From NCBI GenBank assembly GCA_008632985.1, contig QPGO01000195.1, positions 62,001 through 126,000 on the forward strand: DNA of 64,000 nt, written 5' to 3'. Under the pieces are notes generated by a model. It saw only the letters and a program-made list of their open reading frames with translations. It made no database searches and was not told where the DNA came from. Below are positions 9,139 to 64,000 of the stretch, in pieces. This stretch comes from Psammoneis japonica. Lineage: Eukaryota. The first letter of the stretch is position 1, and the number at the start of each line of letters is the position of its first letter. A program made the translations under genes and the position numbers.

Positions 9139-9216
9139 GGTGGGGTGGGCCAAGGCTGCTGTTAGAGAGCCACAACACGAACAAACGCGCGTGCGCACAA
9201 GCTAAAAAATGGCACC

Positions 9217-11601: not shown

Positions 11602-11639
11602 GGAGGACGTTAAACAAGGAACACCAAGTCGACAAACCA

Positions 11640-20280: not shown

Positions 20281-20299
20281 TGGTAGATATCTAATATGG

Positions 20300-22279: not shown

Positions 22280-22856
22280 GGTTCTTGTTGTTGCAGAGTG
22301 TCTCTATTGTCGCTCTGATTTTTTGTTCTCTCGTGTCGATCTTCGGACTACGTACCGGTAACTTCGCGCACCAGCTGACAGCTCTGACGGGGTGGGTTCT
22401 CGTCCGTTGCACCTTGATCAGAGATCGTGTGGGCGAGTCTTATCTTCAAGTCTCCAGTCTTGAACATGACCAAGATTTCTATAACCTTATTTACATGGCT
22501 GAATAGATTTCATAAATTTTTCGTAAATCTTGGCAGCTGCGCCGCCGCCCGTGTGGCTGGATGCCAGATGCCAGGTCAGCTGGTTGTTCTCTCATCTTTC
22601 TCGATTTGTACCTCTACTCCAGAGAACACTGTACTAGCTAGCTAGTAGTCTAGTTTTCCTACAGGGTAGCCACGTTCTCTACACAGTATATTTGCTGAGA
22701 ACTCACCTGTCAACAATCGCGCTGTTTTCCAGCCATGTTGCTGTCCTGCTGCATGTTTCATCTCTGTCGTTTAACCCCGAAACTCAACTGGGTGCAAATT
22801 AATTTACATTGTGCTATTGCGATAGTATTCATGATTTAACGAGTAAGAACTAGAAC

Positions 22857-23426: not shown

Positions 23427-24799
23427 GGTCAATAGATGCGTTGGGGTTCTCGTCGTTTTGTCGTTTTGCGTTGTGACTGCGATCAGTCGCGTGTCGCAAG
23501 TCGCGTGTCACGTCGTTGTTCTTTTTGCTTGCACCGCAAATTCGCGTGGGACAGGTTCTGAGCCTCGTGACAGATGTGGCTTCGACCAACCGGTCTGCGC
23601 CACTTGCTTGGGGGCTGCTTTCTGTCAGTCATCATCGGGAAGAATGCTTGGAAGAAGGTGACAGAGGGCCGAGTGCGCTTCAATGGCAAGCAATGAGGCA
23701 TTTGGTGCTCTGTTGGTGCTCAAAAACAACTTGAAGAGAGGAAGCAGAATGGGTGTGGCCCAAGGGGACTCACGCGCTGGAGGCACAAAAGGGCCAGCCG
23801 CAAGAGAAACAAGGTGATGCCAGGGTTGGACAAAAGAGGGGCTGACCAAGCACCAGGAGTGGGAAAAAGTGGGTTGTTGATGACCAACAAAAGAGCACAG
23901 CAGGAGAGCAAGCTGGGGCAAAAGTTTTGGTCACAAAAGGGGTCAGCTCTGCTGCCACCTCTGTCGGAGCAGGGCACGAGGTGCCAAACAACAACAAAGG
24001 AAGCAACAATTTTGATCACTGCCTGGAGGTGTGGGTGCTTGTACAAGCAACATTGGCATTGCAGCAGCAATCTGTGGCAGTGCTGTGGTGCTCCCAGTGC
24101 ACTGAGATGGGGGCAGATGTGGAGTCGTTGCAAAGATTGCTGTTGTTGACAATTTTGAGAGTTGTTTCTGAGTTGGAACATGTCACCAAGAAAATGTTTG
24201 GATTCACTGAAGAATGGAGCAGAGCCTGCTCCTCATGCTCGCCAGAGGCATGACTTTGAGGGTCAGCCAAGTGCTTGATCTCTGTGATGTGAGGGGGTCA
24301 CTGTGCTTGCAGCAACTTGCAGTTGGAGCGCAGTTGCGTCAACACACACCCATTTGTTGGAGGGAGAGCATCAGCTGTGCTGGCTTGTGCAGTGAAGGCT
24401 TTGTGGTTGCACATCTCATCCTGCAAATTGGGGGAGTCTCATGACACAAGATGTTGTTGGCTGCTCCTGCCATTTTTCAGCACAGCTCATGACATGCGCA
24501 TTCCCCAACGACAAGGTCCGCAAGGTGCTGGGTGTCTCACAACCTGATGACAGGGCACAGGCAGTCTGCCACAGATTGTGCATGCTCGTCAGCATGCCAT
24601 CTTGTGTGCATGCAATGCACCATCACCATCTGTGCAGACAACTCTGGCAGGACCCAAATGACTGTCAGTCCCTCACCTCAAGAACTTTTGCTCCTGTTTG
24701 ACCAGCACCAAGGCGCGCAGTTGTCCTGCTGCACACTGGTGCTCCTTGCACTTGCCATTTTCTCATTTCACCTGGCTTGACATGCAAAATTTGACATGA

Positions 24800-27000
24800 T
24801 GGCATGGAGCCACATTTCTGTGGAGCACCGCCCCCGTCAGGCTTGTTCTCATGTGGCAGTGTGCACCACAGCTTCTGTGGTGAGTGCAGCTTCTTCTGCT
24901 GTGAGTGTGCCACCCTGTGTGTCATCTTTGTCAACCAACTTCATGTTCTGCACTGACTGAAAATGAGCACAAAAGTCAAATTTCTGGCTGCCCAACACAT
25001 GGGTTTTGTGCTCTGTTGTGCAGCTCTCCTGCAGGCTGCACTCCACCACATGTTTCTTTTGATCATGGCTGCAGTCATGCTGTGTCACCTGGTCAAGTTC
25101 AGCCAAGAGTTTGGCTCCTCTGCTGAAGATTGCCTGGGCCATCTGTGCAGCTGTGCCTGCTTGATGATGTTGGACATGATGCTGTCAGCAAAAGCTTGGC
25201 AGGTGTTTCAGCAACCAGCAATCTCTTGAACCAACCTGCGACAGGGTTGGCCATTGCAGCTGATGCCCACAAATGTGGGGGCTTCTTTGCTTGTTGCTTG
25301 GCTGTGCATTCCTCTGTCACAGTGTTTCACACAGACAGTTTTCTCGTGGGCCAATTTTGGCCATGTTTTTTGGCACCTTCCAACATTTCTGACTTTGACA
25401 TTTGTCTTTTGACGTGCTTTCCACTGAAGCACATGAAGTGCACTGCAGCTCACGCAACATGCCAGCAGAAGCATTGGGTGACACAAATGTCTCAGCTTGT
25501 GTCTCTCTCTGGAATGGCACAGCTGAGGATGACATCAGCCCATCGCCTGCTTCTGCAGCAATGCTTGGACACATGATTTTGTCCTCACAGCAGATCAGCT
25601 GTCTTGTGGATGATGTTTCCCACCCCACGAAAAGAGTGCAAGAGATGCTGGTCTGACACACACAGGCTTTTTGCAACAGGCTCTCATCTTTGTGCTGCTC
25701 AACTTGCAGTTTCTTAAGGGGGGTCATTTGCTGCTTTTTTCAGCTTGAATTTGACTGAACAGCTCACAATTTGCATGATTTTCACAGTGCTTCACCGAGG
25801 TGAAAACATCAAGACATTGCAAGTCTGTGATGGAGGTGGTCCATCTGTCAACTCTCATTTGTTGTTTGTGTCCGTTGTGTGTCAAAGGCTGCATGTGCAT
25901 CTGATGTTTGAGGATGGGCCGCTGCATTTTTGAGCTGTGTCGACATTGCCATCATCTTGGTGCTTCGATCACGGTGCCTGGTGCTCTTGTTTTCATGTGC
26001 GATGGGGGGGGGTTGAATGCAAACTCAAACAATTTTTGCATTCAAAAACAAACACTGCAAATGTCCTCATTCAAATGCCATGGCAATTCTGGGACAAACG
26101 CAGGGGTGATCACAGCAACCAAGCTGCTGTGGTGGCCTTTGATGTGCCACAACTCAGGCCCGCACTCTTTGCACATCAAGTGTGGCTCCATGTCAGTGCC
26201 CATGAAGTTGTCCCTTTGTGCAGCAGGAGTGGCCATGTGCCGCTCTTCTTCAGGCACACAGGAGCACACCAGGTGGCTGTGCCAATGACAAAGACACCAA
26301 AGGTTTTTGGGAGACACTTTGTTGTGCAGGTGTTTGGGAGGTTTGGTGCCACCGTGAAGCCAAATCTCTTTGCATTTTTCTTTCCAGATTGCAGCACATT
26401 CTCTGCACAAATTTCCACAGCATGATTTCAACTCCTTTGCTTTCGACTTTCAGCACAAGTTTCAAGCACAATTCTGCATGCTCAGACACAGATCATTGTT
26501 CTGCCCCTCTTGCTCCCTTTCTCATTCCAAGTTTTGTCACAGCGAACTTCCAATTCATGAAGGATGTCTGCACTTGGCATCCCAGTGTGGGGCCTTGCAA
26601 TGCTCTCAACAGGACACCCCAACACTTGCTGTGGTTGAGGCCCCTTTGCATTTTGTCATTCTGGCTTCACACAACATGCCCCCTGTGCAACTCTGCACAT
26701 GATGGCACTTTCTTTTGACCATCTTTCATGTTGGAGCTCATTGGATGTTTCACCCCAGGAAGTTTTTTCTTTCTTTTGCATGCTTCATCTTCAGAGAGAG
26801 TCGCATGTTTGGTTTTTCTGCAGCACTTTTGTTGTGACTCCCATGTGGTGTGGGCTGGCTGGGCTGGCCCATTCTTTGAAGCACAGCAGCTCCATTTGCC
26901 ATGCGACAATCACACAGCACCATTTTGGCTCAAAGCTGTTGGGTGTGATGGGCACTGGTGTCTTGCAACAATGCATTGAAAGTCTTCAAATTGTCCCTGC
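24800..27000 (-). mobile_element. Ty3/gypsy pol remnant (RT - RNase H - integrase order)
   Basis: CVIV..GKWSC (~26900, cf. CTIVLPWGKY), ECGPELWHIKG (~26150, cf. EYGPELxYIKG), EQHKD (~25690), LWASAAMANPVAGWF (~25250, cf. ALTMIDPATGWFE); heavily degenerate. Confidence 0.5.
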
Positions 27001-27839
27001 CACCCTCTGGGTGCTGGCAGTGAGACAACAGCACAGGTGATTTCTTTTTCTTCTTTGCATGCCAAGTGTCAGCACATTGTGTGATTGGCACTTGGCATCA
27101 TGTGCTTTGCACGTGAGATTTTCTTTGACCAGTGCACACAGTTGCTTGTGATGCTGTGCAACAAGAACCCAGCTGAGCACTGCTGAGATTTTTGCTGCAA
27201 CAAAATGCTGGCAGTCTGCCAGCCTGCACATTGATGAGCACACTTCAAGCAGTTTGCTGCAATCTGGGCATGCACACACACAATGACTCTTTGGGCATCA
27301 CCTGCCTTGCAACATTCCTCAACATGACCCTCCAGCCCCAGTTGGAAGTCCTGCCTGCAAGTCTTGCAAGGGCCAAACATCTGAGTGGCACAACACATCT
27401 TGGCAGCAGCCAACCACCCTCACAAATGAGCACAGCTCTTTCTTTGTCTGTGGCTCAGCTGCTCACTTGACTGCCTTGACCTTCTTCATCAATCAAGTTG
27501 CCAAGAAGTGCCTTCCCCAGCAACTTCACATGCCAAAGGTTTTTGAGCAAGTTCAACAAAAGACAGGCTTTGTGGTGCTCACCTCAAGCCTGCCTGGTGT
27601 GTTGAAGCCTCTCAACTGCTTTGTCCCAGTTTCTCAAGAAGGTTGCCAAAAGCAAGCACTCTGCAATGACTGAAAGATCTCTGTGTGCACACACACAAAG
27701 GACAAACCCTGGAGTGGGCCAGACAATTTTTCCTGAATGTTGGGGGGGGGGGATGTTTCAGAAAAATGAGAAGCTGCAAAGCTTCCTGGGCATCAAGTCA
27801 AGGGGCACATGGTGATGACCCATGCTCAGATCCGGGGAT

Positions 27840-28236
27840 GACGTGCTCCAGCTCTGGGTGGGACCTTGCACTGCTGCACTGTGACATCAATGGTTTTTTG
27901 GATCATGTCGCATGTCGCGCATGCACATTTCTGTGTGTTGCATTCTACGAAATTGTTTCATGCTCCCTGTTTTGCGAAGCCAAAGGCTCTCCATTTTCAA
28001 CATTTGTGAGAGTGAAAATGTGCTGGGTGTGTTCTTCAATGTCTGAAGAATGCAACCGGGCAAACCATCAATGATGCACTTCAAGTGTGGAGGAGGAGAC
28101 ACATTCACAAAATTGCCTCTTTTTCTGTTGGCGGTCATTTGCACTTTCATTGCAGCACAAATTTGCTGCGGAGCTCGCACGCAGAATTCTGCGGGCCCAA
28201 TGTCACACGGAGTCCCACCCAGGACTGGAGCCCGTC
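27840..28236. mobile_element. MITE-like element with 25-bp terminal inverted repeats
   Basis: GACGTGCTCCAGCTCTGGGTGGGAC (27840-27864) vs reverse complement of 28212-28236 GACGGGCTCCAGTCCTGGGTGGGAC (22/25); related to 57810-58504. Confidence 0.7.
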
Positions 28237-29261
28237 GGATGCTGCCTGCTGGACTCAATGCATGCCCTGGACATGAGGAGCCAGGCACGCAGCATTTGCT
28301 TTGCCCATTTTCTCAGCTCACAAAAGCAAAAAAAGCCGTGCTGATGGGTCTTTCTTGGGTGTTGTGAGCAACGGAGCTGCTGACTTTAAAGCACTGGTGT
28401 TGCGTGGCATTTTTGTCTCTCTGTTTTCAACATTTGCTTGCAACACCTTAGAATCTTGTGGGGTCTGGTGCAGCACAGCTCAACATTGTCCTCCTTTGGC
28501 TGAGTGTGGTGGTGGGGGCACCTCTCCAGCCACTTGCCCAGCATGCAGTCAAGCAATGGCTTGTGCGCTTTTGAGGAGAGAGCAATTTTTGCTGCTGAAC
28601 TTTGTTCAAACTTCTGATGTTTTCAGCAACCTGTGGCAAATGTGAAGCCTGGTGCTGGGAACCCAGGGCAGCTGCAATTTGCTCACTGATCCTTTTTTGC
28701 CATTCTGGCTGGCTCTCTTGGGTGCAAAACGCCATTGTGCTTGCAGTGCCCATGCCTTGCATTGGCACCATTGGCAGTCAGCCATTTGATGATGGTTTGT
28801 TTGGAGAGCAAAGTGCTGGCTCCATGAGTTTCTGAAGTGCTGCACCTGGCAACCAGCACACCACACAATTGCAGAGCTTTCCATTGTGCAAATGGGCTGC
28901 AATTTCTAACTCAGCTGCTTTGAACATCCATGAAAGCCTGAGTTGAATCTGTTGGCACTTGCTGCTTGCTGAAAATGGGCCAGCCACTGTGTGCCCCAGC
29001 CAGTCTTGGCAGTGTTTCTTTTTGCCACAATTTTTGCAGCAGCCTCTGTCCACTGTCTCACAGCACCAGCTCTGCTGTCCAATGAAGCCTCCTCCACCAT
29101 TTTTGTTTTGCCTTTGTTGTGCATGGTTTTTAAAGCTGCAAACAGAGTTGGCATCTCTGTTTTTGTGATTTGTGAGTGGCCCACAGCTGGCTGCACACCA
29201 AGACATTTGTGCACGAGGGCCAGCCATCACAACTGCACTTCTTGTCCTTGTGCTCACAGGA

Positions 29262-30471
29262 GACCAAAAGTGCTTTGAGGAGTTTGTTGAGATCCTCAGT
29301 GATTTTCTTGTGTGCTTGGTTTTTTTCTTTTTGTCTGGAGGCAGTGCTTTCTGGGCCACTGCGCTGATGATGGTGCTCAACTTTTGACCACATCCCAGAG
29401 AAGAAAAACACTCCTCCTCTTCTCTGGCTCAACTGAGAGAGCACCCAGTCTTCATCTTGACCTTGAGCTTCAAACTGCTGCACTCTTAAGATTTTTTGAT
29501 TCCTTTTGAAACCTGCCGTCGGCATCTTCACCCTGTTGAAAAAATGGCGACAGACTCTGAAGCTGTGCAGTCAAGAGGTTCAAAGCTCCAGAGAGAACCA
29601 AACCTTTTGTGAAGTGCTGCACATTCAGAGCTCTGCAATTGAACAAAAATCTGCCATTTGTTGCCTGGCAACAACAGCTGCAGATTGTCACCTCTCTCAA
29701 CTTCCAGAGGAAAATTCTTTGAGCAGCTGTCCAGCTCAGCAGCCCTGGCAACATGCCCCCCCCCCCCCCCCTCCACCAAGTCTTTTTCATTTTTGCAGGT
29801 CTTCACATGAAGCAGATCAAGGGGCACTCATGCAGCAGTGCTGCCCTCTGGGGAAAGAGCCAGTGTGCATTGAGAAATTTGCATGTGAGAGCCATGCATG
29901 TGCCCCTTGTTTTTAGATTTGCTGAAGACCAAAAGTGCTTTGAGCAAACCCACTGAGATCCTTGGCAATTTTCTTGCACTTGGTTTTCTTCACATTGAGC
30001 ACTTTCTGGACCACTGCATCAATGATGGTGTTCAACTCTTGACTGCCCTTTTTTGCATTCAGCTGAGAGAGAGAGAGTGCCCGCCAGTCTTCATCTTCTT
30101 GACCAGCTGTGCCAAACTGTGGCTTGGCTTTTTTTGGAGCTTGCCTTTGGCTGGCATCTTCAACCTGCTCAGCTCATTTGCAAAAAAGCAACACACACTC
30201 TTCTGAAATTGTGCAACATAAAGTGGGCCAAAGCCCTGGAGAGCTGTGAGGTGTTGTCGTGCACTCAGAGCTCCACAGTGCCACTTGAACAAATCTGCCA
30301 GCTCGTTGTCTGGCAAAAGTGGTGGATCATCTCCTCCCTCAGCTGCTTTGAGCAGCTGTTCAAGCAAGCAGCCCTGGCAACACAGCCCCAAGTCTTTTTC
30401 ATTTCTGCAGGTCTTCACATGAAACGCCTCAGCCCCAAGCAGCACTTTTGCAGCAGTGCTGCCCTCCTGGG
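29262..30471. repeat. Diverged tandem duplication (~600-bp units)
   Basis: Units start GACCAAAAGTGCTTTGAG (29262, 29927) and share CAAGTCTTTTTCATTT.TGCAGGTCTTCACATGAA and GCAGCAGTGCTGCCCTC. Confidence 0.8.
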
Positions 30472-31764
30472 AAGTGCACCTTGGTCACTGACTCCATGCA
30501 CACTCTGCACAGTTGGCACTCTGTTGCCTCATTGTTTTTGAATTTCATGACAGCATCACACCATCCAACAGCATGTGCGTCATCAGCTGGCAATGTTCTG
30601 CTCTGACTGCAATGTTCTGACCATGGACAGTGTGCTCACAATTGCACAGAAAGTGAAGGCACTTTTTGTACATTCTGCGCACTCCATTGCTGAAGCACAG
30701 CAGCATGCTCAGCTTGCACACTGAACTGTTGTGATCCATTGACAACTTGCGCAGCTTGCTCATCTGGCCCTCACCCTTCTGCAGCTCCTTCAGAGGGGTG
30801 GTCCCTTGCAGGTTAAGAAGCACCAACTTCATTGCACAAGATTTGTCTGCACACTTGCTGGGGCAATGTTGCTGTGCCTCACACACCAAACTGGGAGGTG
30901 GGCATTGAGCAGCTGCAAAGATTGCTCTTGTTGACAATTGTGCGTGCTGTTTCTGCTTGACGCATGTTGCCATGGGGGTGCTTGGTCATGCAAGTTGTGC
31001 ACACACACACACACACACACATGTGCACACAGAGAATGTCTGCACCAACAAGCTAACAGCTTTGCTCCAAGTGCCCATCTTGGTTCTCAGTGAATGCTGG
31101 GCAACCTGCAGCATTGTGCATCAAGCCTTCATTCCCATGGGTTGCTTGCAGCTGATGCACAGTTGTGCAAACATGTCCGCTCAGCTGAGCAAGAGCAGTT
31201 TTTGTTGATGCCCCCCCCCCCCCCCCCACACACACACAATGTGCGCACAACTTGCACTCAAAAGGGGGAGTGTTTCTGAGGGCACTCACCACATGGGATT
31301 GGAAAGTGTGAACAAAAATTTGCCAGGCATGTTTTTGGCATCTGACTGATGAACAGTTGTGCACACCAAGGAGTCCATGGGACCACAAAATCACCCCTTT
31401 CTGTGTTGGTGACCGTCGATTTGTTCAGCGCCTGACAGGGAGCTTTTTGTGCTGCAGAGCTCATGCACAGAATTCTGCTGGCCCAGTGTTGTGCAGAGCC
31501 CAACCTGGGAGGCAGAGAACATTCCCAGTGGTGAAAAGAGCTGCCAACAAAAAGTGTCAAAGCCTCAGCCTGGTCCACACATTTGTGCACAACAGCAATT
31601 TTGCAGAGGTTGTGGACCCCAAAAAGGGCTTGCCAAAAATGTCACATGGCACAACAAGCAAAGTGCCATGCAGCATTTGCCAATCACCAAAAAAGAGGCT
31701 GACTTTGCCCAGATGCCACAGCCATGTCGCGTGCAGGGCCGCACAAAACACTCGTCAATCAAGA

Positions 31765-31904
31765 GCAAGGCACTCTGACAATGACCCAAATTTTGTTGCC
31801 CATCATCTTTGCCCTTTGGTGGAATGCATGCTGTGCAAGGCACTCTGACAACAATCTAAATTTAGCTCATCACATCTTTGCCCTTTGATGGAATGCATGC
31901 TGTG
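31765..31904. repeat. 70-bp tandem repeat x2
   Basis: GCAAGGCACTCTGACAA...CTTTGCCCTTTG.TGGAATGCATGCTGTG at 31765 and 31835. Confidence 0.85.
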
Positions 31905-41149: not shown

Positions 41150-44147
41150 ATGGCGGGTGTTTCGAAGAGCTTGGCTTTATTAGCCTTGATCGCCTTGGCA
41201 TCCAAAAATGTTCAGTCATTTACTCCTGTTTCTCTGCAGCACTTGAAACATGTTACATCACCGTCTTCTACGTCGGCGATTAAACTTTCCATGACGGCCG
41301 AGAGTGAAACCGCCACAGATGTATCCATTCCTTATGATGCAGCTGCCCGGTTGGCTTATGATGAGTGGCGCGCGCAATTCAACAAGGGCGAATTTGATCC
41401 TGCTCGCTACGAGAGCTTTAGGGCAAACTACAGCGCGATTACTGTTGCCAATATTTCTGCCAAGAAGGCGGCGCGTGATGCTGGTGCGGGCCAACCCAAA
41501 GTAATGAAATTGAATGAGTTTGGTGACTGCACAGCAGAGGAATACCAGGCTATTCAGAGAGGCGAAACACTGCCAGCTCCCGCTCCCGCTTCCACACCCA
41601 CTGTCACTACCACTGGGGATGTGCTTGGGAAGGCTGTTGAAGCGTCCCAGTCGCAGTCGGAAGCTTCTAGTGCACTTGCCGATGCAGCAGAGGCGCTTGC
41701 GGAAGAAGAAGAGGTAAGGAAACAGAGTGCATTTTGAGCGAAAAAAGCGAATCGCGTTATGTTTTGGAAAACTTTACTTTGTATAGTGGTTGACTTGTCT
41801 TTCTCCCTCTCGATAAAATCTGTCGCAGAAACTGGCAAAGCAGCTCGGGTTGGAAAACGTTGACGAACTAGAGGCCGCTTTGGATGCTATGGAAGGCATT
41901 GCTGATGATGGGGGAGAGCTCGAAAAGGAAAATATTGCACGTGAGGCCCGAGTGCGCTCTGCCTATTTGGAGTGGTGCAAAGAATACGAAAAGGAGCCAG
42001 ATGAAGCACGTTTCGCCACATTTACATCCAATTTCTTGGCTATGGAGAAGTATGCCTCCGAAAGCGGAAAGGAAATGAATTTGAATGCATATGCCGACTG
42101 TACCGAGGAAGAATACTTGGCTCAGACAAACCAGGGTATCTCGTCAGCCACTGTTGTTAGTGAAGAAGATATCGAGGCAGAGGCAGCAGCGAAGGAGGAG
42201 GTAGATGCGGCAGAGGTGGCCGCGAAGGAGGAAGCGGATGCGGCAGCGGTGGCTGCGAAGGAAGAAGCTGACAAAGCGGCGAAGGAGGCTGCTAAAGCCA
42301 AAGCAGAGGCCGAGGAAAAAGCAGCCGCGGAAGCTGCGGCTGCCGCAAAGGCCGCTGACGAGGCAGCGGCAAAGGCTGCTGCAGAACTTGAAGCCAGAGA
42401 AAAGGCCAAAGAAGAGGAGGCCGCGAAAAAGAAGGCTGAAGAAGAGGCATTGGCCGCCATGTCCGAGAAAGACAGGAGAGCTGCAATCGACAAAGAGCGC
42501 AGTGCCCGACAGTCAGCTCAAACAAAAGCACTTGAAAAGGCGCGACTTGAGGCTGAGGCTGCAGCCATTGCTCTGGTAAGTTCCAAAATCAGATGACGAA
42601 ATCCTTTGTAGTTTCTCTTGATAGTTGACCCTGGCGCACTGCAATGCCCGTTTCTCTCGCTACCTTTATAGGCAAAGGAAACCGCTGAGAAAGAGGCTGC
42701 GCAGATTGCAAAACGTCAAGCAGACGACAGAGCGGCTGCAGAGATGCTTCGCCAGCAAATTGAGGCTGCCGAGGAAAAGCAAAAAATGATACAAAAAGCC
42801 AAAAAACCGAGCCCCGAACCGAAGAAGGCGGCACCAGGACTTGCGTCATTTTTCCAACAAAAAGACACACTGGATAAGCCGGCAGCGAAACCCGCACCAG
42901 CCAAATCGGTAGCGAAAGCCACTCCCAAGAAAGTGAAACCAGCTGTCAAGAAATCTGCGCCGATTCAACCTAGCATTACCTTCTCCTTGGGCAAGAAACC
43001 AGAGGCAAAACCTGCACCAAAGAGTATAAGCTTTTCTCTTGGTAAAAAGCCCGAGGTAAAGAGCACACCCAGGCCTAGCTTTTCTTTGGGCAAGCCCGCA
43101 CCGAAGAAAGAAGCGCCAAAAAAGGATGCGCCTAAGTTGGATCTCGGTTCATTCCTTTCTTCGACTCCGACACCACAGAAGAAAGCCGCTCCGGCACCCA
43201 AGGTTGCCCCTGTGAAGAAGGCCGCGCCAGCCGCAAAGAAGGCAGACCCTTTCTCCTTCTTTTCATCCGAACCTGCGCCAAAGAAAGCCGCACCTGCTCC
43301 GGCACCGAAGCCTGCGCCAGTTGCGAAAAAGGCAGAGCCATTCTCTTTCTTTGCATCGAAGCCCGCGCCAAAGAAAGTGGCCCCGGCCCCTGCACCTAAG
43401 CCCACACCGGTTGCGAAGAAGGCAGCACCATTCTCCTTGTTCGGGTCAAAACCACCGCCAAAGAAAGCGGCCCCGGCTCCTGCACCCAAGCCCGCGCCAG
43501 TAGCGAAGAAACCGGCGCCTATGTTTTCATTTGGTTCTAAACCAGCACCAAAGAAGGTTACTCCTCCAGCCCCCGCACCCGTTGCAAAGAAACCTGCGCC
43601 TATGTTTTCATTTGGTTCCAAACCGGCGCCAAAGAAGGCTGCTCCACCAGCTCCCGCACCCGTTGCAAAGAAACCTGCGCCAATGTTTTCTTTTGGTTCG
43701 AAACCGGCAACTAAGAAAGCTGCTCCTCCAGCGCCCGCACCAGTTGCAAAGAAACCTGCGCCAATGTTTTCGTTTGGTACCAAGGCGGCTCCAAAGGCAG
43801 CCCCGGCTCCAGCTCCTGCACCCAAGAAGGAACCGTTTTCGCTTTTCGGAAGCAAGTCGGCTCCGAGTGCTGGTAGAGGAACCCAAGCTCTCCCCAAGCC
43901 TGAGGACAAAGCTCAAAAGAAGGGTGGCTTTTCTTTGTTTGGCGGGGGAGCTTCGGCGGCGCCTAAGGATGACATTCCGGTCCTGTCTCGATTTGTTCAG
44001 AACGCAGATGGCTCATTGACTGGATTTGTAAGCAACTCCAAAGATTTTCGAAACGGAACAGAAATCACCACCTCTCCCGTTCGCCGAGGAGCCAAGGCTG
44101 GCGATCTCGTCACGACCAGCTCCGGAAGTAAATACCGTTTGCAGTAA
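41150..44147 (+). CDS. Large plastid-targeted protein: two I29-propeptide-like domains, EA-rich coil, P/A/K repeats with FSF(G) motifs, C-terminal ITTSPV..TSSGSKYRL domain (introns 41714-41828, 42576-42671)
   Basis: VQSF|TP targeting; AYDEW..F..LNEFGDCTAEEY twice; 81-nt repeats at ~43500-43790; in-frame GT-AG joins. Confidence 0.75.
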
Positions 44148-53198: not shown

Positions 53199-56189
53199 GT
53201 TTTCGTTCTTTGGTGATCAGGAACGACAGTGCAGGATGGGTATTAGAATGAAGGCGACATAACTTTAGGGCCCTACAGAAACTTCTTTCGTCAACTATGC
53301 TGTAAGTACAGTACGGTACATACTGTAGTAGCGCTCACGTGGTCCGGTGATCGGTGATCGAGCGCCGCTGCCGCGAAATGATACTTTAGCAACACAAGGT
53401 GAGCATTGAAATTTTGGAAATCTGAACGGAAAAATGTTGGGTAATTAATAACGGTTTCCGGTGCGGACTGAGGTGAGCGGGCGACAGAAGTTGTTCGGGA
53501 CTCACCGAGCAAAATGAGATTCTCACCACCTCCACTGCGGATGAAGGAGAAGACATGACGAGCGACAAATGACAGAAAAAATGACACAACAACAAAATCA
53601 GGGGGACAAATGCACAAAAAGCAGTGCCAAGACCTGTGGCCCCAGCTGGGTCAAGAGAAATTGAAAAAAATGCTGGCCAACGCTCAAAAAAAGCTGGGGC
53701 AACGCACGGGCAAATGGGTTTGCGAGACTCTGCCAATGGATGCAGGTGAACCAGCACAGATGCTGGTGCAAGGATTTGCTGGATCTGGCTGCTTCTTTAG
53801 CTCAAAGAACACAGCCCAGCTCTGAGCAAGAGCAGCGACATTTTCCAAATGCACGCGAAGCAGTGGCAACCTTTTGCAACCTCGTGAAAAGGCTCTTTTG
53901 CCTTGCATGAAAAAGTTGGGACAAACTTTTTCACTCACTTGAAAAGGTTGTGACAACCTTTTTGAGTCACTTGAAAAGTTGTTGTGGCCTTCTTCACTCG
54001 CCTGGAAAGTTTGTTGCAGCGCCAGCTCCAGCAGCTGCCTCCAACAAACAACTCAGCACAGTTTTGCAATGTTGCTGGTCCAGCTTGCATGCCTTTCTCC
54101 AATGCTGTCATGTGGAAGCTCTGCTCTGTCCACATTTTTCATTTTTCTGCATCAAATGCCTGCACTCTTTGCAGCACCCCCGCCAGCACCAAAGTCTTCA
54201 TTTCTTTTTTCTCACGGTCTTTTCAGCGCAAAACAAGCTGTGGCGGGGCATCTTGCAGGACACTGTTTGTCCAACAGTGTTTGGCACATCCAACAAAAAA
54301 TTTTGCTGGTGGATTTTGCTTGGCTTTGAGTTTTTGTTCTGAGCACTGTCTTTGGCTGTGACTCCAGAATTGCGCGACTTGTGAAAGCAGCACCACACAT
54401 CCGTCTGGTGGGGCAACAATCCGAGATGCACGCCAGCATGACAAAAATTCTGCCATGTCGGAAAGTCGGATTTGTCTTGTGTTGTCAATTGCTTGATGCA
54501 AATGCTGCATGCTGGCATGCAGACAACTGATGTTGTGCGTTGAACCAAGCTGCAATCTTGCACGCTCATGCTTGAGTTGATTTGTGTGCAACACAATCTT
54601 GTCACCTGCCACGTGTCTTTTTTGCCACGTGTGGTTCGTCCCACTCATTTTCATCTCACTTCCCATTTCAACACAAACAATGGCGGCCCCCTTTGCCATC
54701 GGAAATGATTGCCCCATGTGCGGCAAATGTTTTCTCCCAACTGGCCTTCAACGCCACCCAAGAACTTGTCTCCCCTGCAAACTTGGGCCTTTTCTCAAAG
54801 CCTTTTTGACGTTTCTTCCCGTCAATCTGACGCCACTCATGGCAAACATTCCCAAATGGGAGAATCAGATGAACAAGTGGACATTGCTGCCTCTTCCACC
54901 CTTGGCTCTCCTCCATTTGAATTTCTTGCTGCTGTGCACGACTCCAATGCCGTGCCAACTCCACAAGGTTGCACCAGACACAATCCCCGGCCGTTGCGTT
55001 CCAACTGTGCTGTCTCATCTGCGCCAGAGCTGCATGGTTCCCATGACATGACAAATCCCCTGCAGGTGCAATCTCCTCCCCCCTCCTCCATCACAATGTC
55101 ACAGGAAGCTGCCAACCTCTTTGTTGCCCGTCTGATGTGCATCAGATTGGATGCATTTGCAGCCCTTGATCCCACGTTGTTGGCGTGTTTGTTCCATGAG
55201 AACATGCTGCACAGCGGGGTCAAGATCATTGGATCAGATTTGTCATCCGCCATCAGTGAGGCAGCTTCACCAACAAAACCTGCTGGCACACGGACATCCA
55301 TCCAATGCCTGCGCCTTTCTTGCTTTGACGAAAGCACGAAGGAAGAGTTTGACACAGCAAACTCTTTTGCATCTCCGCGCAGTTTCTTGGACAGTGTTTT
55401 GGCAGCACCGAGTGATGCATCCTGCCCGATGCATGGCAGAGTCATTGGCACAAGGGCAAGGGGACTTTGCCCTTGTCTCAACTGCTCCATGTGGACAAAG
55501 AGGGCCAGCACTCGTCCATCTGCCATGGTTCGGAACTCCTCGAAAACACACGTGTTGGCATTTTCATCATCTTCTGCCATTTGACTCAGGGATGTCATGC
55601 TTGATGCTGGGCCCTGGAGGCCATCGCACACCTTCGGAATTGTTTTTGTGCCATGGTGCATTTTGCTTGTGTGCGTGTCTCACTTTGCCAATGCATGCAC
55701 CGTGCATTTTTTTTGAAATTCTGACACGACTGCGATTTGAAATTTGAATTTTTCAAATTTTTTACGTCATTTTTTTGTCATTTTTTCCCCCCAAACTGGC
55801 TGTTGCCTTTTTCTCACTTCCCATTGCATGAACAACATGTTGAGTTTGAATTCCACTCATCTTCGATTTTTAAACCACCAGATTCGTGTGGACCCCGCGT
55901 GGCTGTTTGTGTTTTCAAACAGATCATGGAGCACAAAACACCAACCGCCAAATCATTTTGCCCCGCTGACACTCTTCTGATCCCTGGTCACAATCATTGT
56001 TGCAACAACCACAGATTCGCTGCTTTGCATCTTTTGTCAAAACACGAAACCTTGGGCGGAGACAGTCAATGCAGCAGCGCCACAACTTGTCATCGAATGC
56101 CTCGCTCTCCAAGACTGCAATTGAGAATTGAATCTCTTGCTCACTCTAAGACTTCAACTGAGCATCCTTTCAAGTGTGAATCATCCACT

Positions 56190-56800
56190 CTGTCATCCGA
56201 GAAATGGCCACACACCTCACCCAACAGCCCGGAATGGGAGCAAGTGGAGGGAGCGGATTTTCGTTTCTTTGTGACTGACTGTCTCCACACACAAGACTTC
56301 CGGAGAGCCTTTTTTCCCACACTCGTTCTTTCATCTGCTCCATCATCCAAGAAACGGTCACATGCCTCACCCAACAGCCCGGAATGGGAGCAAGTGGAGG
56401 GAGTGGCTTTTGACAACTCTGTGGTTGACTCTCCGTGCAGACACAACTTTCCTTCAAGCTTTGTGATCCGAGAAACGGCCACATGCCTCGCCCAACAGCC
56501 CGGAGTGGGAGTGAGTGGAGGGAGTGGCTTTTCGCATCTCTGTGGCTCACTTTCCATGTGGAAACGACATCTCCTTCAAGCTTTGTCATCCAAGAAACGA
56601 CTGCACACCTCACCCAAAAAACAGCCCGGAACGGGAGTGAGTGGAGGGTGTGCCTGTTTGTGTCCTTGCGATTGACTTTCCCCACACACAAGCTTTCTTG
56701 TGAGCTTCTCCACTGTCGCTTTTCATCTTGTCATCCAAGAAAAGGTCACACACCCTCACCCAGCAGCCTGGAACGGGAGCAAGTGGAGGGACTGGCTTTT
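56190..56800. repeat. Five-unit tandem repeat (~120-150 bp)
   Basis: TCATCC(A/G)AGAAA..CAC..CTCACCCAACAGCCCGGA..GGGAG..AGTGGAGGG at ~56193, 56343, 56464, 56586, 56731. Confidence 0.85.
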
Positions 56801-57809
56801 CACAACTCGTCTTTGACACTTTCCATCTGCCAAGATTTGACTTCCATTCCTGGGTCACTTGGTGGACTGCTCTCTGTTCACGTTTCTTTTCTCGCCGTTG
56901 TCTTCATCCATCTCATGCCCTTGCAATGGTCACCATCCAATGCTGCCCCTTCGCCGGCTTGGTTTGCCTCAGTTGCAACAAGAACACAGGAAACGAGATC
57001 AACCCATGTTGCACGACGTGATGGGGGAGTGAAATTGCCATGTTGGGTGTCCCCTGTCATGCGCTCCACACAATTTCACCATGAGTGCATCTTGGGGGGT
57101 TTGCGCGCATGTCAAGGGTTTGCACGCATGTGGAGGGAGTGCATGTTGCACGGCCCCCCACATGCACTCCCCCTGCATGCACCTGTCTTCGTCATGCCCA
57201 CATCATCATGGACACCTTCCAAGGTGCTTCGCATCGTCACAACTGTGTCATCCTCCCCACATCATCCTGACATCATAACGCTTCAATCTTTGGCCGTCAA
57301 AATGACTGCTCTGCATCGCCAATTGCAGCACACTGCCTTTAAATGTCGGTTTTTTTAGAGTGCGTGCAGCGGGATTTTTCCTGATGCTGGCAATGGCAGA
57401 TGCTGGCACCCCTTTTCTGCAGCAGCAACAGTTTCTTTGTTCATGTCAACTGCAACAAAAAGCGCTGTTGAGCATCACTGCACTGCTGAGCATCATTGCA
57501 ATTGACAGAAATGTCAAACTGCCTAAACTGGTGACTGCCGCACCACACATTGCCAACTGAACAAGCTGCCGCATTGACCTCAGTTGCGTCACCTTGACTT
57601 GCAACCACACCCTTCCAGCAGGGGCGCACAGCCTGTTCAAAACATTCTCCTGCACAGTGCACCATTCCACAACAACCTTGATTTTTTCCGTCACACAACC
57701 ACGCTTTTTTCTTGTCATTCTTTTTCCACTTGCAATTGCACCCGTCTTTCTTGCACACCAAACCCACAACTTCCCACCAACTCTCACACAGACAGAAATG
57801 ACCCTGGCT

Positions 57810-58504
57810 GACGGGTTCCAGTCCTGGGTGGGACTTTTTGTGACATTTGCCCGGCAGAATTCCACGTGCGAGCTCTGCACTTCATGCTCTGGTCAATGGA
57901 CACATTTGTCTTCGACATGAAATCAATGGGAATCATTCGGGTCCTGACAGTCATCACGTGGAAATTGTGCAGGAGAGCACTGAAAACAATTGTCATCAGT
58001 CTGTCCATCCATCCGCACACGAATGTCAACTTCTCGGGAAATCAATTGAAATGCCATCTGATTGATGGTGTTTTGATTCACACAGTGAAGGCCAACACCG
58101 TCAACCAGACAGCATTTCAACTCAGTTCCCGAAAAGTTGTTAGCTCCAATCACTCTCTCGCATGACATTGTGTGCATTTCTGCACGATTTTGTGTTTTTC
58201 CTCATGCAAAATGTCAACTGTGACCCACGCAACATTTTCGAATGATTCCTGTTGAACGGCCAAGTTTGCAGTGCATGTGTCTCTGTTCGCACTCGAAGTT
58301 TTGGACAACACGCCTGCCCTGCGCCATTCTCAAGACACTCGAGAATGGCGTGGAAGAAAAAAATGTTAAAAGTTGCTGAATGGATGATGCAAAATTTCAC
58401 CAAAATCACGCAGAAATCTATGTGTGCAACATGCGACACGATTCAAAAAACTGTCAATGTCACAGTTCAGCAGTGCGAGGTCCCACCTGGACCTGGAACG
58501 CGCC
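57810..58504. mobile_element. MITE-like element, longer relative of 27840-28236 in opposite orientation
   Basis: TIRs 57810-57834 and 58480-58504 (19/25); both subterminal regions align to the 27.8-28.2 kb copy. Confidence 0.7.
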
Positions 58505-59810
58505 GGCTTTTGTGATCATGGCAGCTGCACTTCAAATTGTTTTTAATTGCAAGTCTTTGCAAGATGTGTTTTCATCCCAGGTGAGAAACGCGCATGCGGA
58601 GGTGAGACGTTTCGTCTGTCCCTTTTCCGTCGCAGTGCTTTTTGTGCGAGCAAATCTGACTGGACTTTCCCCCAATTTTTCGTTTCTTCTTTCCACAGAC
58701 ATGTTTATTTTGAAAAGCCAGCCGTTGTTCTCATTGGTTGAAGGGTGCGCACAAGAAAAGCGCTGTCTCGAAAGCGGCATTTTTTGGAGTGAAACTGACA
58801 GCCATCTGCTCGTTGTTGTCACTCTGGTGCATTTGAGAGACTGTTCTGCTGTTTCTTTCACCGAATCTGACCACTTTGAAAGAATGTGCCATTGTTCATT
58901 GTGTGAAGAGCTCATGACAAAAAAGAATGGCGTTCTAACTCTGTCATTTGCACAAGAAAAATCGGGGGAACTGACTTCGCACGTGATTTTTTTGCGCGAT
59001 CGGCCATTTCAAAGATCGACTGATTTGTCGACCTGTGTGGGACACTTGAGTGAATGAAACAACAGGATTGAAACAGTGGCGTCAAAGTTCAATGTGTGTC
59101 CAGTTGTTGTGTGATTTGATGTGCCCAAGTAGAGTTAAAGATGAAACATTGACAAAATTTCACCACTCAAAATGACCAGTTCTATCTTAGAATAAAATAA
59201 AATGGCTGCAACACTGAGATGTCGCCAATGGTGTTGTTCCACTTTACAACAATGAAACTGTCACACTTGCATCTGAGATTCTTTATCCTCACACACCCTC
59301 AAAACCGAACACATGGCGATTCTCTTGTCGGTGGCAAAATCTGATGTTGTCGCGCGACCCAAAAGCGTCGTCCACAATGACTCAAAGTGCGGACGATGCA
59401 TCACAAGAATCACAGCAACGTGTCATAGAAACATTCTTCATTGTCAGCATCCAGTGTCAAGTGGATGGAGCAGCGCGTTGATGAGAATCCTACTTCGCAA
59501 GCTGAGGAAGAGAGAAAGAGGCATCAAAAATGTCATGAGTCAAAAGGCTGTCCACAAGGCACAACAAAAAACAAAGATCAAATTTTCAACCACATCATCG
59601 TGTTGAGCGTTGTCTTGTTGACCTGTCTCGGCATTCTTGCCTTCTCAGTCACAACATCCGTTGGTGCAAGAATGGACGAGTTCATGGCGACGGCATGGTG
59701 CCATTTTCGGTTTGCGCGAATTGTGGTTTGTGGTTCGAGACATGGAAAAACATATTTTCACTGTCATGGAGCTCGTTTTTTACTAAGATTTTTGGTGCTA
59801 AATGTACGTC

Positions 59811-62370
59811 TCATGTAGAAACACGTAGAAAACCTTGTGATGTGTCCAAAAGTTTCTCACCCAGGATGAAAACACATCGCAAGTCGTTGCTGCAATCCCA
59901 ACAAAATCGTTTGTTGTTCTCATCTGCCAACGAACAGGTTGCATGCACGCACGCAGCACACAAATCACGCTTCAACTTGTTTGAAACAGCCATGTCGCAG
60001 ACCAGGCACTTGGGTTCAACTGGCTTGGATTGGGGCTTGTGAGTTGCCTTGGGGGCTCTTGCTGCTGGCGCCACTTTAGATTTAGAATGCTTGTTGCCTG
60101 TTTTGGCACCCTTGGTGCTCACGTTTGATTCCCTGGTTAAATTCGGTGGCACACCAGATGCCTGCTGCTGTGCCAGTTGCCTTGCTGAGTTGATCTGATC
60201 AACTGTGTCTGTTTCAACCATTTTGTTTTTGTGCTCCTTTCCAGCTCTGTCTCCCAGTGCTCGACGATTGTTTTTTGCCGCCTGCAATTGCAGTGCAAAA
60301 CAGGTTGGCATGGTGCCAACCGCTGATGTGTTGCCGCGCCCGTCTGAGTGCACCTTTTTGATTCTTTCATGCTGTTCCATCAACTTGGCCTCATCACCAC
60401 GTTGCTGCATTCTTGCTGCATGCAAGCTCATGCCCTGCAACACTTCATTGTGTGGTTTCCCCTTGGTCATTGCACTGGCATTGGTGTGCCATGTGGCTTT
60501 GCCAATTTTGTTGCTTGCTCTTGTGTTTGCTGTAGAAGCGCCCTGCAATCCCGTGTTGTTGTGTGCACGGCACCGTTCCACACCAGTCGGAGCTGTGTTT
60601 TCCTTGCCTTGATGCAACAGCCAGTCCATGGCTGTGCTGTCGTTCTCTTGAATCTCTTGCCAAAACGTCTCCTGGCTTTCTCCAGCACTTGTTGTGATCA
60701 CGTCAACATCCGCGCTGGAGGACCAATCTGCATGATCATGGAATGCGTTGAACACCGCTTTCAACAATTCACTGGTTGCGGACTCTGCGTCATCATTGCT
60801 GATTTCCCAGCAATTTTCTTGCAACTCTGCTCCTGTGTGCAACACCTTCTTGCCAATTTCCAATGGCAACGGCTCTGCTTCCCGGTTCCAATGGCAACGG
60901 CACCACTTCCAAGCCGTTCCCCGTCTTGACAACTGTGTCGTCGCCTCAGTTGTGAAACAGCAAATGATTTGCGGGTGCAAACTGGAAGGCTGTGTCAAAC
61001 TGCTCAACAACTTTGGCACCAAACATCGTGATTTTGTGCCTCCGAAGGTCAACACCGCCATCATCTTGAATTGGGACCTCTTTGGGTGTGTCAAACATGC
61101 TCGAATTGTCTGTGTTGGCATCCTGTCAAACACGAACATCAAAGCAAAATGGACAACAGTTTGGTGCACGGCCGCACATGGAACACATCCTCCAACCATG
61201 AACACTTTGATTGTTTTTTTTTTGCTTGCCACCACCATCGCTTTGCAATGAACCATTCCTTGTGGCATTCACTTTTGGTTTCTTCCAAGCAGTTCACGAC
61301 ATCCTTCATCAACAAACAATGCCCATTGCAATGATTCTCAAGCGCATCATTGAATTCCCACTGCTTCCTTGACTTTTCCTTTGTGACAACAGCTGTTCCA
61401 CATCCGCACAATTTGGCACTTGGTTTAAACCCGTCTGTGTGCGCACATCCCAAAACACTCCAAGACGCTCGCTCTGTGTCTAATGCCCAACCTTTCTGCA
61501 AGTCCCAAATGCCTTGGTTGACATGAAACGCTCGCAACCACCCTGCGAAGTTTTGGTTGGTTCCCACATGCTTTGCCATCTCTGGAAAAGCAAAGTGAGC
61601 CAAGTTGCCAGTGCGCATCCCCATTCCTGTGCTCACCGCCAAGTGCACCACCTCAATTCTGCTCAAAGCATCTCGCTTCATCTTCTTCAAGAGCTCATTG
61701 TGTCTCTTCTGCAACTCTTCAACACAATCCTTGTCTTCTGTCTTTTTTGTCTGCTGCCCGCAATGCTGACAAAGGAGCGCCTTGGCGTGTTTCTCTGTGC
61801 ATTTTTCACAAGTGATGTCTCGTCTCCCAAACAAGATGGTGCAGCACCACCCTCCTGCTCCCTCTTTTAGCTCAATGCTTGGCACTGGTGCTTGTGCACG
61901 CAATGTCCCTGGTCCCTTGTCACTCTGACAATGGGACGCCGCTTTTGAGTCCAGCAATGCCAACATTGTCTCGCTCAACTTCTGCAATGAAATTGTGTGG
62001 GAAAGTTGCGGGATTTTGGTTCTTGCGAGTTTGTCTCATGCTCAGCAGCCAAAACCTGCTTTTTTTGAATTGCCAGACGGTTGCAGCTGAGCACAGACAA
62101 GTTGCCGTTTCTGCAGTTTAAAGGGTGGGATTTCAAAACTGGTGCGTTCCATTTAAATTTTTTGGAACACATCCCATTTTTCGTCTTTGGTCTGTGCAAT
62201 TGTTTTGAGCTGTGTCCCTTTTTTTGTTCCTGGAGAATCGCGCACATTGCTGAATGTTGTTCACACAGACATGTGCAGAAATTCATGCGTGAGAACATGG
62301 ACATCATTGCCCCTTGCTGGTCTGTTGGCTCTACATTGCAACAACATGTGCACCCTGAGCAATGACATGC
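59811..62370 (-). pseudogene. Degenerate large ORF with C-terminal PHD-like zinc finger, probably DNA-transposon-derived
   Basis: Frameshifted ORFs 61975-62373, 61139-61987, 59811-61268; CLVC...C..CVHATC...FCWDC; no Tyr in the 485-aa ORF; family not identified. Confidence 0.45.
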
Positions 62371-62827
62371 CACACTGCGACGTGCAATCTACGTTGACAC
62401 CCTGCATGTGCTTGCCATGTGTGCATTTCAGTGCTGTGTCTGCGGCAACAGCCTGCGCTTGCTCTCTTCGCTGAACATGAAATGTCAACCACCCAGCAGC
62501 ACACAATCAACGCCGACTGCAGCAGCATCTCTCTCTGTCAACACCGGCCCCATCCTTTGTTTCCATTGGCAATGTCTCCATCTCCATCAAATTTGGCACC
62601 AATTGCAAGCACAATGCACTTTGCTGCCTTTGTGCAAGTGCAGCCATGTCTGTGTTGTTGATCAGCCAAATCCTGCTGCAAAATTGTCACTCTTGTTTTT
62701 GACAGAAACAGGCACAAGTGCTCACTTGAATTTTGGAATTTCCTGTTCAACAGGAATCCTGCAGCCATTGAAGAAGCAGAGTCACCCGCGCATGCACGAA
62801 ACACACAAATTTGTTCTGTCCCAGACA

Positions 62828-63315
62828 CAAGTCTCTGCCCGCACAACGTGGCACAAACCCGCTCTGTTTGTTGTCGTGCATCGTTGCAACTGCCTTGAAG
62901 GTTGTGGCTGCCCTTCCTCAACTGGTGCTCAGGCTGTGCATCCTTCTTGGAGTGCAATCATTGTGATTGACAGGAGAGCTGGGTGCTGTGTCTGTTGGCA
63001 ACCCATCCAGAGAAATTGTTCTCCGTCGCGGATGCAAGTTGCTGCCTTGCAAGTTCCATCCCGGATGCAAGTCTCTGTCCACACGACGCGGCACAACACT
63101 GCTCTGATTGTTGTTGTGCATTGTTCACAACTGCCTTGAAGGTTGTGGCTGCCCTTCCTTTGCTGGTGCTCAGGCTGTGCATCCTTCTTGGAGTTCAATC
63201 ATTGTGATTGACAGGAGAGCTGGGCACTGTGTCATTGTGATTGACAGGAGAGCTGGGCACTGTGTCTGTTGGTGACCTGTCCAGAGACATTGTTCTCCGT
63301 CACGGATGCAAGTTG
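62828..63315. repeat. ~240-bp tandem duplication
   Basis: CAAGTCTCTG...AACTGCCTTGAAGGTTGTGGCTGCCCTTCCT...CATCCTTCTTGGAGT at ~62828 and ~63068. Confidence 0.85.
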
Positions 63316-64000
63316 CAGTGTGTGTGCAGGCAGCTTGGACTGCTTCATCATCAATCATGTCGGAGGGGAACAAGTCTGTCATGAACATGCAGCAACTGTT
63401 GACCACTGTTGAACAAGTTGCTGCGGGGAGGGAAAATGATGATCCCACCCCTGCTGGAATCAAGCACTTTGTTGAGAGTGACAAGGCACACTTTGCAAGG
63501 AGGGGCACAACCATTCACCCTTGGCATTGTTCTGCATTGACTGGGGTGTCAAAAGGTCTCCAGGCTCCAGTGTCTTCTTGTTTGACATCGTGCACCACAG
63601 CAACAAATGTGCAAACAACCTGGAAGACAAAGCGTGGTTTCAAGAGGCCATGACAGATTTCTTTCTTGGCGCTTTCAACGATGACAACTGTTCAGCCATC
63701 CGGCAGCATGTCCAGCACAAACACACACACATGCCAATTGTTTGTGAGCAAAAATCAGCAAAGGAACACGACTGCGACATGTCCAATGGTGTGGTGGCTG
63801 TGCTCCTCTGCCGTTGCTTTCACAACGTTGGAGTTGCGGTTGACTTTGTGCACAAAATCAACCATCCGCGAGAGGATGTCATTGCCAAAAAGTGCAGTGT
63901 GTTTGTCCATTTTTGTTTGGTTTTGCCCAGTCCCTTTGCTTTCATGCAGGCAACAAGTGGGATGCACTGCTTCATTGCCAGGAGAATCTCGTCAAATGCT

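Follow-up and report, generated by a model that had tools for sequence, protein, structure and literature searches.

What erased TpA from long stretches of a diatom chromosome, and which neighbouring bases does the responsible agent read? These questions are raised by a 64,000-nucleotide stretch of Psammoneis japonica (GenBank assembly GCA_008632985.1, contig QPGO01000195.1, positions 62,001 to 126,000 of the forward strand), the whole of which was analysed and is referred to below as the window. The dinucleotide is almost absent from three domains of it, D1, D2, and D3 (Table 1). A sequence-only reading of the window had proposed, from the TpA sites that are left, that the preferred target is 5'-T-A-Y (Y, pyrimidine; R, purine) and that Y-TA-R sites are spared. 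On balance we think it probable, though far from assured, that the domains were shaped by a hypermutation of TpA to TpG or CpA (A:T to G:C), restricted to them and with a rate depending on the 3' flank, the agent of which would be a TadA-type adenine deaminase.

The domains were found from the observed/expected ratios (o/e) of dinucleotides in 2-kb bins; pooled, they comprise 22,920 bp, and the flanking DNA 40,351 bp. The o/e of TA was 0.04 in the domains and 0.59 in the flanking DNA, whereas that of CA/TG was 1.69 versus 1.14 and that of CG was 0.46 versus 0.96. Relative to the neighbouring DNA, about 93% of TpA was removed. The longest gap free of TpA was 2,231 bp across the domains and up to 1,965 bp in D3a, and D3b contains no TpA between 62,390 and the window end. 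The erasure is specific to TpA, and its products are TG and CA: the o/e of AA/TT was 1.29 inside the domains versus 1.17 outside and that of AT was 0.79 inside, indicating that neither was erased, and GA/TC stood at 0.97, with TC undepleted. It is also restricted to the domains, the borders of which are sharp; the neighbouring Utp21, P450, DAO, HSF, and GXWXG genes are TA-normal. The decay of CpG fitted with the likelihood model was 0.02 in D1, 0.29 in D3, and 0.75 in D2. The erasure of TpA reaches saturation ahead of the decay of CpG: in D1, most TpA has disappeared but hardly any CpG has.

Sixty-one TpA sites survive in the domains, 40 of which are Y-TA-R, compared with 18.4% of the 1,604 TpA in the flanking DNA (binomial p = 4.6e-4, 5.3e-6, and 7.3e-9 for the single domains and 7.4e-16 pooled). 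In D3 outside the TA-normal island, the sequence-only reading had estimated roughly 24 TpA, about 17 of them TTAA, TTAG, or CTAA, and no R-TA-Y; the count was 25, consisting of 18 of these words, seven one-sided sites (YTAY or RTAR), and no R-TA-Y. With the island taken to end at 59,800, one GTAC (59,805) and two GTAG count as outside. Its statement that the D1 element lacks R-TA-Y agreed with 0 of the 21 TpA of D1 (11 of them Y-TA-R), and its figure of 11 Y-TA-R among 15 survivors at 23.5-31.9 kb was exact for D2, where two GTAC (24,042 and 30,669), that is, R-TA-Y sites, are also present. Equal depletion of all NTAN contexts, the outcome that the same reading had named as contrary to its proposal, was rejected in every domain: in a Monte Carlo G-test over the 10 strand-symmetric classes of NTAN, no more than 2 of 200,001 simulations were as extreme as the data. 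The survivors are not back-mutations, because new TpA would come from TG/CA, of which only 1,089 of 4,840 (22.5%) lie in Y..R flanks versus the 40 of 61 survivors.

The sparing is graded, and there is no spared Y-TA-R class as such. TTAA had a retention of 0.42 relative to the flanking density, and CTAA/TTAG one of 0.27. Retention was at most 0.06 for GTAA/TTAC, CTAC/GTAG, ATAA/TTAT, GTAC, and ATAG/CTAT, and zero for ATAC/GTAT, ATAT, and CTAG. CTAG left no survivors versus 42.6 expected from the flanking density, and accounts for none of the 40 Y-TA-R survivors, although in the flanking DNA 25% of the Y-TA-R sites are CTAG (p = 8e-6). The proposed sparing of Y-TA-R therefore stands for TTAA and TTAG/CTAA, but its wording was too broad, since it also took in CTAG. 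In short, TAA is the slowest context and TAG comes between it and the fast ones, while no CTAG is left.

These retentions were described with an additive model in which the conversion rate of A on each strand is set by its 3' base and the two strands are summed. The fitted values of t × r were 0.38, 1.23, 2.15, and 3.26 for a 3' A, G, C, and T, respectively (T:C:G:A about 9:6:3:1). The model reproduced all 10 NTAN classes, the predicted and observed numbers of survivors being 19.0 and 17 for TTAA, 17.0 and 23 for CTAA/TTAG, 10.9 and 8 for GTAA/TTAC, and 3.6 and 0 for CTAG. The order A<G<C<T recurred when D1, D2, and D3 were fitted separately. Across the model fits, t × r was 2.2-2.9 for TAC and 3.3-3.8 for TAT, indicating that conversion at TAT is no slower than at TAC. 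Furthermore, the fit was improved by a term for the second base after A (+2; likelihood ratio test, p = 8.8e-6). Retention was 0.32, 0.14, 0.11, and 0.045 in TAAA, TAAC, TAAG, and TAAT, respectively, and 0.17 in TAGA versus 0 in TAGT; both the +1 and the +2 base thus have a graded effect, and the commonest surviving hexamer is TTTAAA (8 of 61). Protection by an adjacent CpG was dropped as an explanation, TACG making up 7 of 18 surviving TAC versus 208 of 939 outside (Fisher p = 0.15).

The survivors alone cannot tell a pyrimidine after A (T-A-Y) from a purine before T, whereas the products discriminate between them. A 3'-Y rule predicts that YTAY becomes YTGY and RTAR becomes RCAR, a 5'-R rule predicts YCAY/RTGR, and an enzyme that recognises the palindrome RTAY in the duplex predicts both equally. 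The ancestral composition was modelled either from the flanking DNA or from unrelated long interspersed nuclear element (LINE) loci. With the flanking reference, the excess of YTGY/RCAR was +587 and that of YCAY/RTGR +159. When half of the lost CpG was assigned to each product class, lost YTAY/RTAR sites were recovered as YTGY/RCAR with a share of 0.96 in D2, 1.05 in D3, and 1.01 in D2 and D3 together (95% confidence interval (CI) 0.77-1.27), whereas the share recovered as YCAY/RTGR in D2 and D3 together was -0.04 (CI -0.24 to 0.16). A block bootstrap with 4,000 resamples gave P(difference ≤ 0) = 0 for D2 and for D3. The gain derived from TA, relative to the expectation without preference, was 2.25-fold for TGC, 1.25-fold for TGT, 0.65 for TGG, and -0.18 for TGA. 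In the likelihood over the 64 N-(TA/TG/CA/CG)-N cells, the 3'-flank model exceeded the no-context model by 71 units in D2 and D3 together, and exceeded the 5'-flank model by 4.9, 24.2, and 38.9 log-likelihood units in D1, D2, and D3, respectively.

A choice of strand is accordingly evident in D2 and D3. As far as the sequence can tell, the converted A sits in 5'-TAY, equivalently the T in 5'-RTA, and each strand is read independently in these two domains; the 5'-T-A-Y target of the sequence-only reading was thus borne out by the products. This flank fingerprint argues against a duplex enzyme recognising a palindrome. The counts of TGY and RCA were about equal in D2 (606 versus 567) and in D3a (333 versus 313), and were 339 versus 250 in D3b (p = 3e-4). 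Those of D1 were skewed, as were those of its flank, and no conclusion was drawn from strand asymmetry.

The second reference consisted of 15 TA-normal metagenome loci (L001-L015, 77 kb) whose encoded proteins are distantly related (23-33% identity) to the LINE endonuclease in D1. With this reference, the retention ranking was the same, and the excess of YTGY/RCAR versus YCAY/RTGR was 60 versus 10 in D1, 323 versus 33 in D2, and 329 versus 47 in D3. The TA o/e of the loci themselves was 0.56-0.84, all normal, and they provide no replication of the erasure. Since all 15 relatives are TA-normal, the erasure is not inherent to the LINE lineage.

These results point to a mutator that acts on each strand separately, the chance of conversion of the A in TpA being set by the bases 3' of it. 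The rate is high before T or C, about 3 times lower before G, and about 6-10 times lower before A, and is modulated further by the +2 base, A being slow and T fast. TTAA, TTAG/CTAA, and above all TTTAAA survive because they are slow on both strands. The chemically simplest route would be deamination of adenine to hypoxanthine, which is then read as G. The candidate agent is a polynucleotide adenine deaminase that would convert A to inosine, recognise 5'-T-A-Y on the edited strand, act in a TadA-type manner, and be directed to repeats or heterochromatin. No deaminase domain was found among the window open reading frames (ORFs) scanned against Pfam.

Several points weigh against this proposal or against parts of its support. 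In duplex sequence, A to G at T-A-Y and T to C at R-T-A are the same event. The natural site of TadA is U-A-C-G, yet here TAT was converted no more slowly than TAC, and TACG was not favoured. In D1 the flanking reference leaves the mass balance unclosed, the recovered shares being 0.19 versus 0.10 (P = 0.31). The gain of TGC (581) exceeds the 515 that the loss of TAC can supply, and the ancestral composition must therefore have differed somewhat from the reference. When all CpG decay was fed into the favoured class, the contrast shrank to 245 versus 159, without reversal. Finally, direct evidence from copy-to-copy comparison is thin: among 40 of the 1,142 variant places, seven pair TA in another copy with TG/CA in the window, six of which are informative, four fitting the 3'-Y rule and two contradicting it.

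The closest known system is that of the chlorarachniophyte Bigelowiella natans, in which integrated viral DNA (nucleocytoplasmic large DNA viruses (NCLDV) and virophage) undergoes A to G/T to C hypermutation at TpA only, seen de novo in mutation-accumulation lines; the authors suggest ADAT2 as its agent (Mettrop et al., bioRxiv 10.64898/2026.01.13.699255). The same preprint reports 231 de novo mutations, and genome-wide TpA-poor, CpA- and TpG-rich clusters enriched in reverse transcriptase and DDE domains. Its main text gives no flank context, "motif" there denoting TA only, and its figures and supplements may bear on this point. Both systems affect TpA alone and yield TpG and CpA; that of Bigelowiella is local to foreign or repeat DNA, as that of the window may be. 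Unlike Bigelowiella, the host here is a diatom, the erasure is near-complete (o/e 0.04 versus a Rho of 0.45 given for the NCLDV region there), and the loss of TpA in D2 and D3 is accompanied by CpG decay.

In Neurospora and other fungi, repeat-induced point mutation (RIP) makes TpA from CpA. The window resembles RIP in the domain-wide, dinucleotide-specific transitions in repeat-associated DNA, with transposon frames destroyed and adjoining genes untouched. The direction is opposite, however, TpA being destroyed and CpA/TpG made here, which excludes deamination of cytosine as the chemistry. TadA and ADAT2 have T or U directly 5' of the target A (U33-A34). Among editors derived from TadA, a strong YAC preference is described for early versions (ABE3.1; PMC7056309) and YAY>YAR for the TadA-8e A48E variant (ABE8e-YA; PMC12528748), and the TadA motif is listed elsewhere as 5'-ACG (PMC10661471). 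The changes in the window share with these editors the A to G direction, a pyrimidine 5' of A (here always T), a preferred pyrimidine 3' of it, and an edited strand that is read on its own. In contrast, those editors are engineered, guided by Cas9, and active on an exposed single strand; here, CA was unconsumed, so that C-A is no substrate, TAT was as fast as TAC, and about 96% of all TpA was converted, with no sign that a stem-loop is required. The rate order resembles that of TadA-derived editors, as an imperfect match, and not that of ADAR or Pol eta.

A wider and distinctly tentative idea is that diatoms carry a repeat-directed, single-strand DNA adenine deaminase with a T-A-Y(Y) specificity inherited from tRNA-anticodon deaminases, in the same system as that of Bigelowiella. 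If true, this would be an ancient "reverse-RIP" genome defence common to the stramenopile-alveolate-rhizarian (SAR) supergroup, and its enzyme a naturally occurring A-to-G editor of DNA.

The main rival to adenine deamination is modification of thymine in R-T-A. A TET/JBP-type enzyme would act on T in 5'-R-T-A to give 5-hydroxymethyluracil (5hmU) or 5-formyluracil, and mispairing with G would turn T into C; R-T-A to R-C-A describes the sequence data equally well. 5-Formyluracil mispairs with G, whereas 5hmU as such pairs with A, which counts against the 5hmU form of this explanation. Dinoflagellates provide a partial precedent, as they are likewise SAR-group algae, and their 5hmU replaces T preferentially in TA and TC and on repeats, with a TET/JBP enzyme silencing transposons (PMC11572971). 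As presented there, 5hmU is an epigenetic mark and is not shown to be mutagenic, and TC, the other preferred dinucleotide, was unaffected and undepleted in our domains. No sign of 5hmU in diatoms came up, though none was looked for. The Bigelowiella authors also prefer deamination of A in their preprint (bioRxiv 10.64898/2026.01.13.699255). We therefore regard modification of thymine as unlikely, while taking it more seriously than the explanations that follow.

ADAR-like editing of repeat double-stranded RNA or RNA:DNA hybrids, copied back to DNA, would have the observed direction, and ADARs favour U/T as the 5' neighbour. Their upstream U is mentioned by Mettrop et al. (bioRxiv 10.64898/2026.01.13.699255), and the ADAR1/2 motif is listed as 5'-UAG (PMC10661471). 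This explanation was refuted by the observed order, in which TAG is not the fastest context but about 3 times slower than TAC/TAT, with TTAG/CTAA among the main survivors. Moreover, AA was undepleted, both strands were about equally affected in D2 and D3a, and no retroelement protein was found in D2 or D3; we give such editing hardly any weight. Targeting of the domains by Pol eta-like error-prone repair synthesis (WA to WG; W, A or T) is similarly hard to credit. A to G at an A preceded by T does belong to its WA signature, but AA/TT was enriched in the domains, as the sequence-only reading had argued from the abundance of AA, and the removal of TpA was near-complete and cleanly dinucleotide-specific. 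It is very improbable, if slightly less so, that no flank-reading mutator was involved and that the pattern reflects an unusual ancestral composition of the elements or a constraint on TTAA-like words. The ancestral sequences were modelled, and the D1 mass balance with the flanking reference was open, as described above; nevertheless, the same order was obtained in three domains differing in content and CpG state, the two unrelated references agreed, and the ratio of TTAA to the other NTAN words would need to have been at least 7-fold that of either reference. The remaining explanation is a base-calling artefact, in which the assembly would systematically give TG/CA for a chemically modified TpA. 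No sequencing platform is on record for either the assembly or run X1, and X1 may be the source sample of the window itself. However, k-mer contigs of X1, which were placed on 8,770-28,769 (D1 and D2; 3,955 contigs, 3,433 of them less than 99% identical), matched D2 with 0 differences in 1,494 bp and with 7 in 3,233 bp across the D2 border, with which strand-specific miscalls are incompatible. In addition, the LINE-like ORF of D1 lost every Tyr codon in a coherent frame, and the same change is reported as real mutation in Bigelowiella (bioRxiv 10.64898/2026.01.13.699255). An artefact is thus extremely unlikely.

Hypermutation of TpA and the ADAT idea were already known from the 2026 Bigelowiella preprint; the flank order, the +2 effect, the loss of CTAG, and the choice of strand are added here. 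In the literature searched, we found no description in diatoms, and the only match for a natural A-to-G mutator of transposons was that chlorarachniophyte preprint, which is so far the single documentation of TpA-erasing hypermutation. The flank fingerprint (T and C at +1, then G, then A; a +2 effect; non-palindromic) amounts to a biochemical specification for candidate enzymes, directly comparable with four oligonucleotides and with the 231 published Bigelowiella mutations, and it argues against ADAR-like and Pol eta-like mechanisms. A natural enzyme converting A:T to G:C in chromosomal DNA would be of interest to base-editing research. The signature also accounts for spurious long ORFs in all frames, a trap for gene callers, and for transposon proteins free of Tyr, which matters for the annotation of diatom genomes.

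Table 1 TpA-poor domains of the window and the repeat features within them (positions in the window; TA and CG, o/e ratios).
Feature	Position	Strand	Details
D1, TpA-poor, LINE-like	8,770-13,400		TA 0.06-0.21; CG 0.73-0.81, nearly normal; 21 TpA
LINE-like ORF in D1	11,114-12,637	+	endonuclease/exonuclease/phosphatase-type region; Pfam PF03372, E = 0.0045, below cut-off
D2, TpA-poor and CpG-poor	23,434-31,900		TA 0.01-0.06; CG 0.13-0.19; 15 TpA
70-bp very high-copy element, D2 copy	28,167-28,236	+	borders given by loose contig ends at 28,166 and 28,233-28,237
D3, TpA-poor	53,450-window end		TA 0.02-0.06; CG 0.41-0.52; interrupted by the TA-normal island
D3a, left part of D3	53,450-59,100		bins 54,001 and 56,001: TA 0.02 and 0.04, CG 0.51-0.52; 14 TpA left
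Diverged tandem repeats in D3	56,181-56,830		self-BLAST 67-86% identity, offsets about 150-400 bp
70-bp element, D3 copy	57,810-57,879	-	85.7% identical over 70 bp to the D2 copy
TA-normal island in D3	59,101-59,829		17 TpA in 729 bp (11 one-sided, 4 YTAR, 2 RTAY), near the flanking-DNA mix
D3b, reaching past the window end	59,830-64,000		TA 0.03-0.06; 11 TpA left
Diverged tandem duplication in D3	62,813-63,042 vs 63,053-63,316		77% identity (self-BLAST)

As for the content of the domains, the LINE-like ORF of D1 had only two distant relatives among 4,071 candidates: P0001 (36% identity, E = 1.9e-57) and P0002, which carries PF14529 and PF03372. The ORF contains no Tyr in 507 amino acids, whereas Tyr makes up 2.3-3.3% of the two relatives, and its Cys and His are raised to 3.1% and 4.5%, respectively. 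The absence of Tyr is the coding read-out of the loss of TAY. Tyr positions of P0001 were aligned to Cys twice and to His once in the window ORF, too few to polarise the change. Many diverged contigs of run X1 mapped onto D1.

No identifiable transposon or retroelement protein was found in D2 or D3 by Pfam and homologue searches. The 37 six-frame ORFs of D2 gave no Pfam match that identifies an element, one RS4NT match lying below the cut-off; the 86 six-frame ORFs of the domains and eight further ORFs gave nothing above the Pfam cut-offs; and the longest ORF of D3 (485 amino acids, 59,811-61,268, minus strand) had no homologue among 5,428 candidates. Long ORFs that overlap on both strands, such as 54,709-55,584 (plus) and 54,837-55,679 (minus) in D3, result in D2 and D3 from the loss of TAA and TAG stops. 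Comparison of the window with itself gave short or diverged repeats only, with no long terminal repeat pair or sister copy by which changes could be polarised.

The 70-bp element is possibly a family of the short interspersed nuclear element or miniature inverted-repeat transposable element type. In run X1, the summed contig depth on its D2 copy was 22,559-45,338 versus about 58 on the neighbouring genes. ARAGORN did not call it as a tRNA, the tRNA scan giving 0 genes, and a 26-base word from it had 0 matches in the metagenome scan. As to the restriction of the erasure to repeats, D1 is LINE-like and D2 and D3 contain tandem repeats and the 70-bp element. Adjoining D1, the stretch 13,439-14,772 had a summed contig depth of 3,081-6,269 versus about 58 on genes, yet its TpA is normal (bin 14,001, TA o/e 0.60); it looks like a high-copy repeat that escaped the erasure.

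The TA-normal island in D3 is bracketed by a 27-nucleotide inverted repeat (58,563-58,589 and 59,852-59,878, 93% complementary). Possibly, the unit bounded by this repeat is a terminal-inverted-repeat element that arrived once the mutation episode was over; against such an insertion, its left 540 bp contain only two TpA and its right 730 bp contain 17.

Outside the domains, the window has a G+C content of about 49% and is dense in eukaryotic genes with few introns. These include Utp21, a P450, a DAO-type oxidoreductase, HSF-type factors, and a GXWXG protein. The named best matches of the Utp21 ORF were all from diatoms (including Attheya, Nitzschia, Cylindrotheca, Seminavis, Pseudo-nitzschia, and Amphora), with 47-56% identity, so that the database searched contains no near relative of this diatom. 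Run X2 had no cover on 9,437-12,771 and 23,444-27,445, a lack that was not counted as evidence. At 19,695-19,811, a contig of this run omits 115 bases with GT..AG ends, which suggests that the gene at about 18.8-20.2 kb has an intron and that X2, though listed as "DNA?", derives from RNA. The bin 42,000-44,000 showed o/e values of 0.38 for TA, 0.56 for AT, and 1.96 for TT, and 43,217-43,823 consists of diverged tandem repeats of about 90-180 bp within a 491-amino-acid ORF; this bin is probably a gene for a low-complexity repeat protein rather than a mutated domain.

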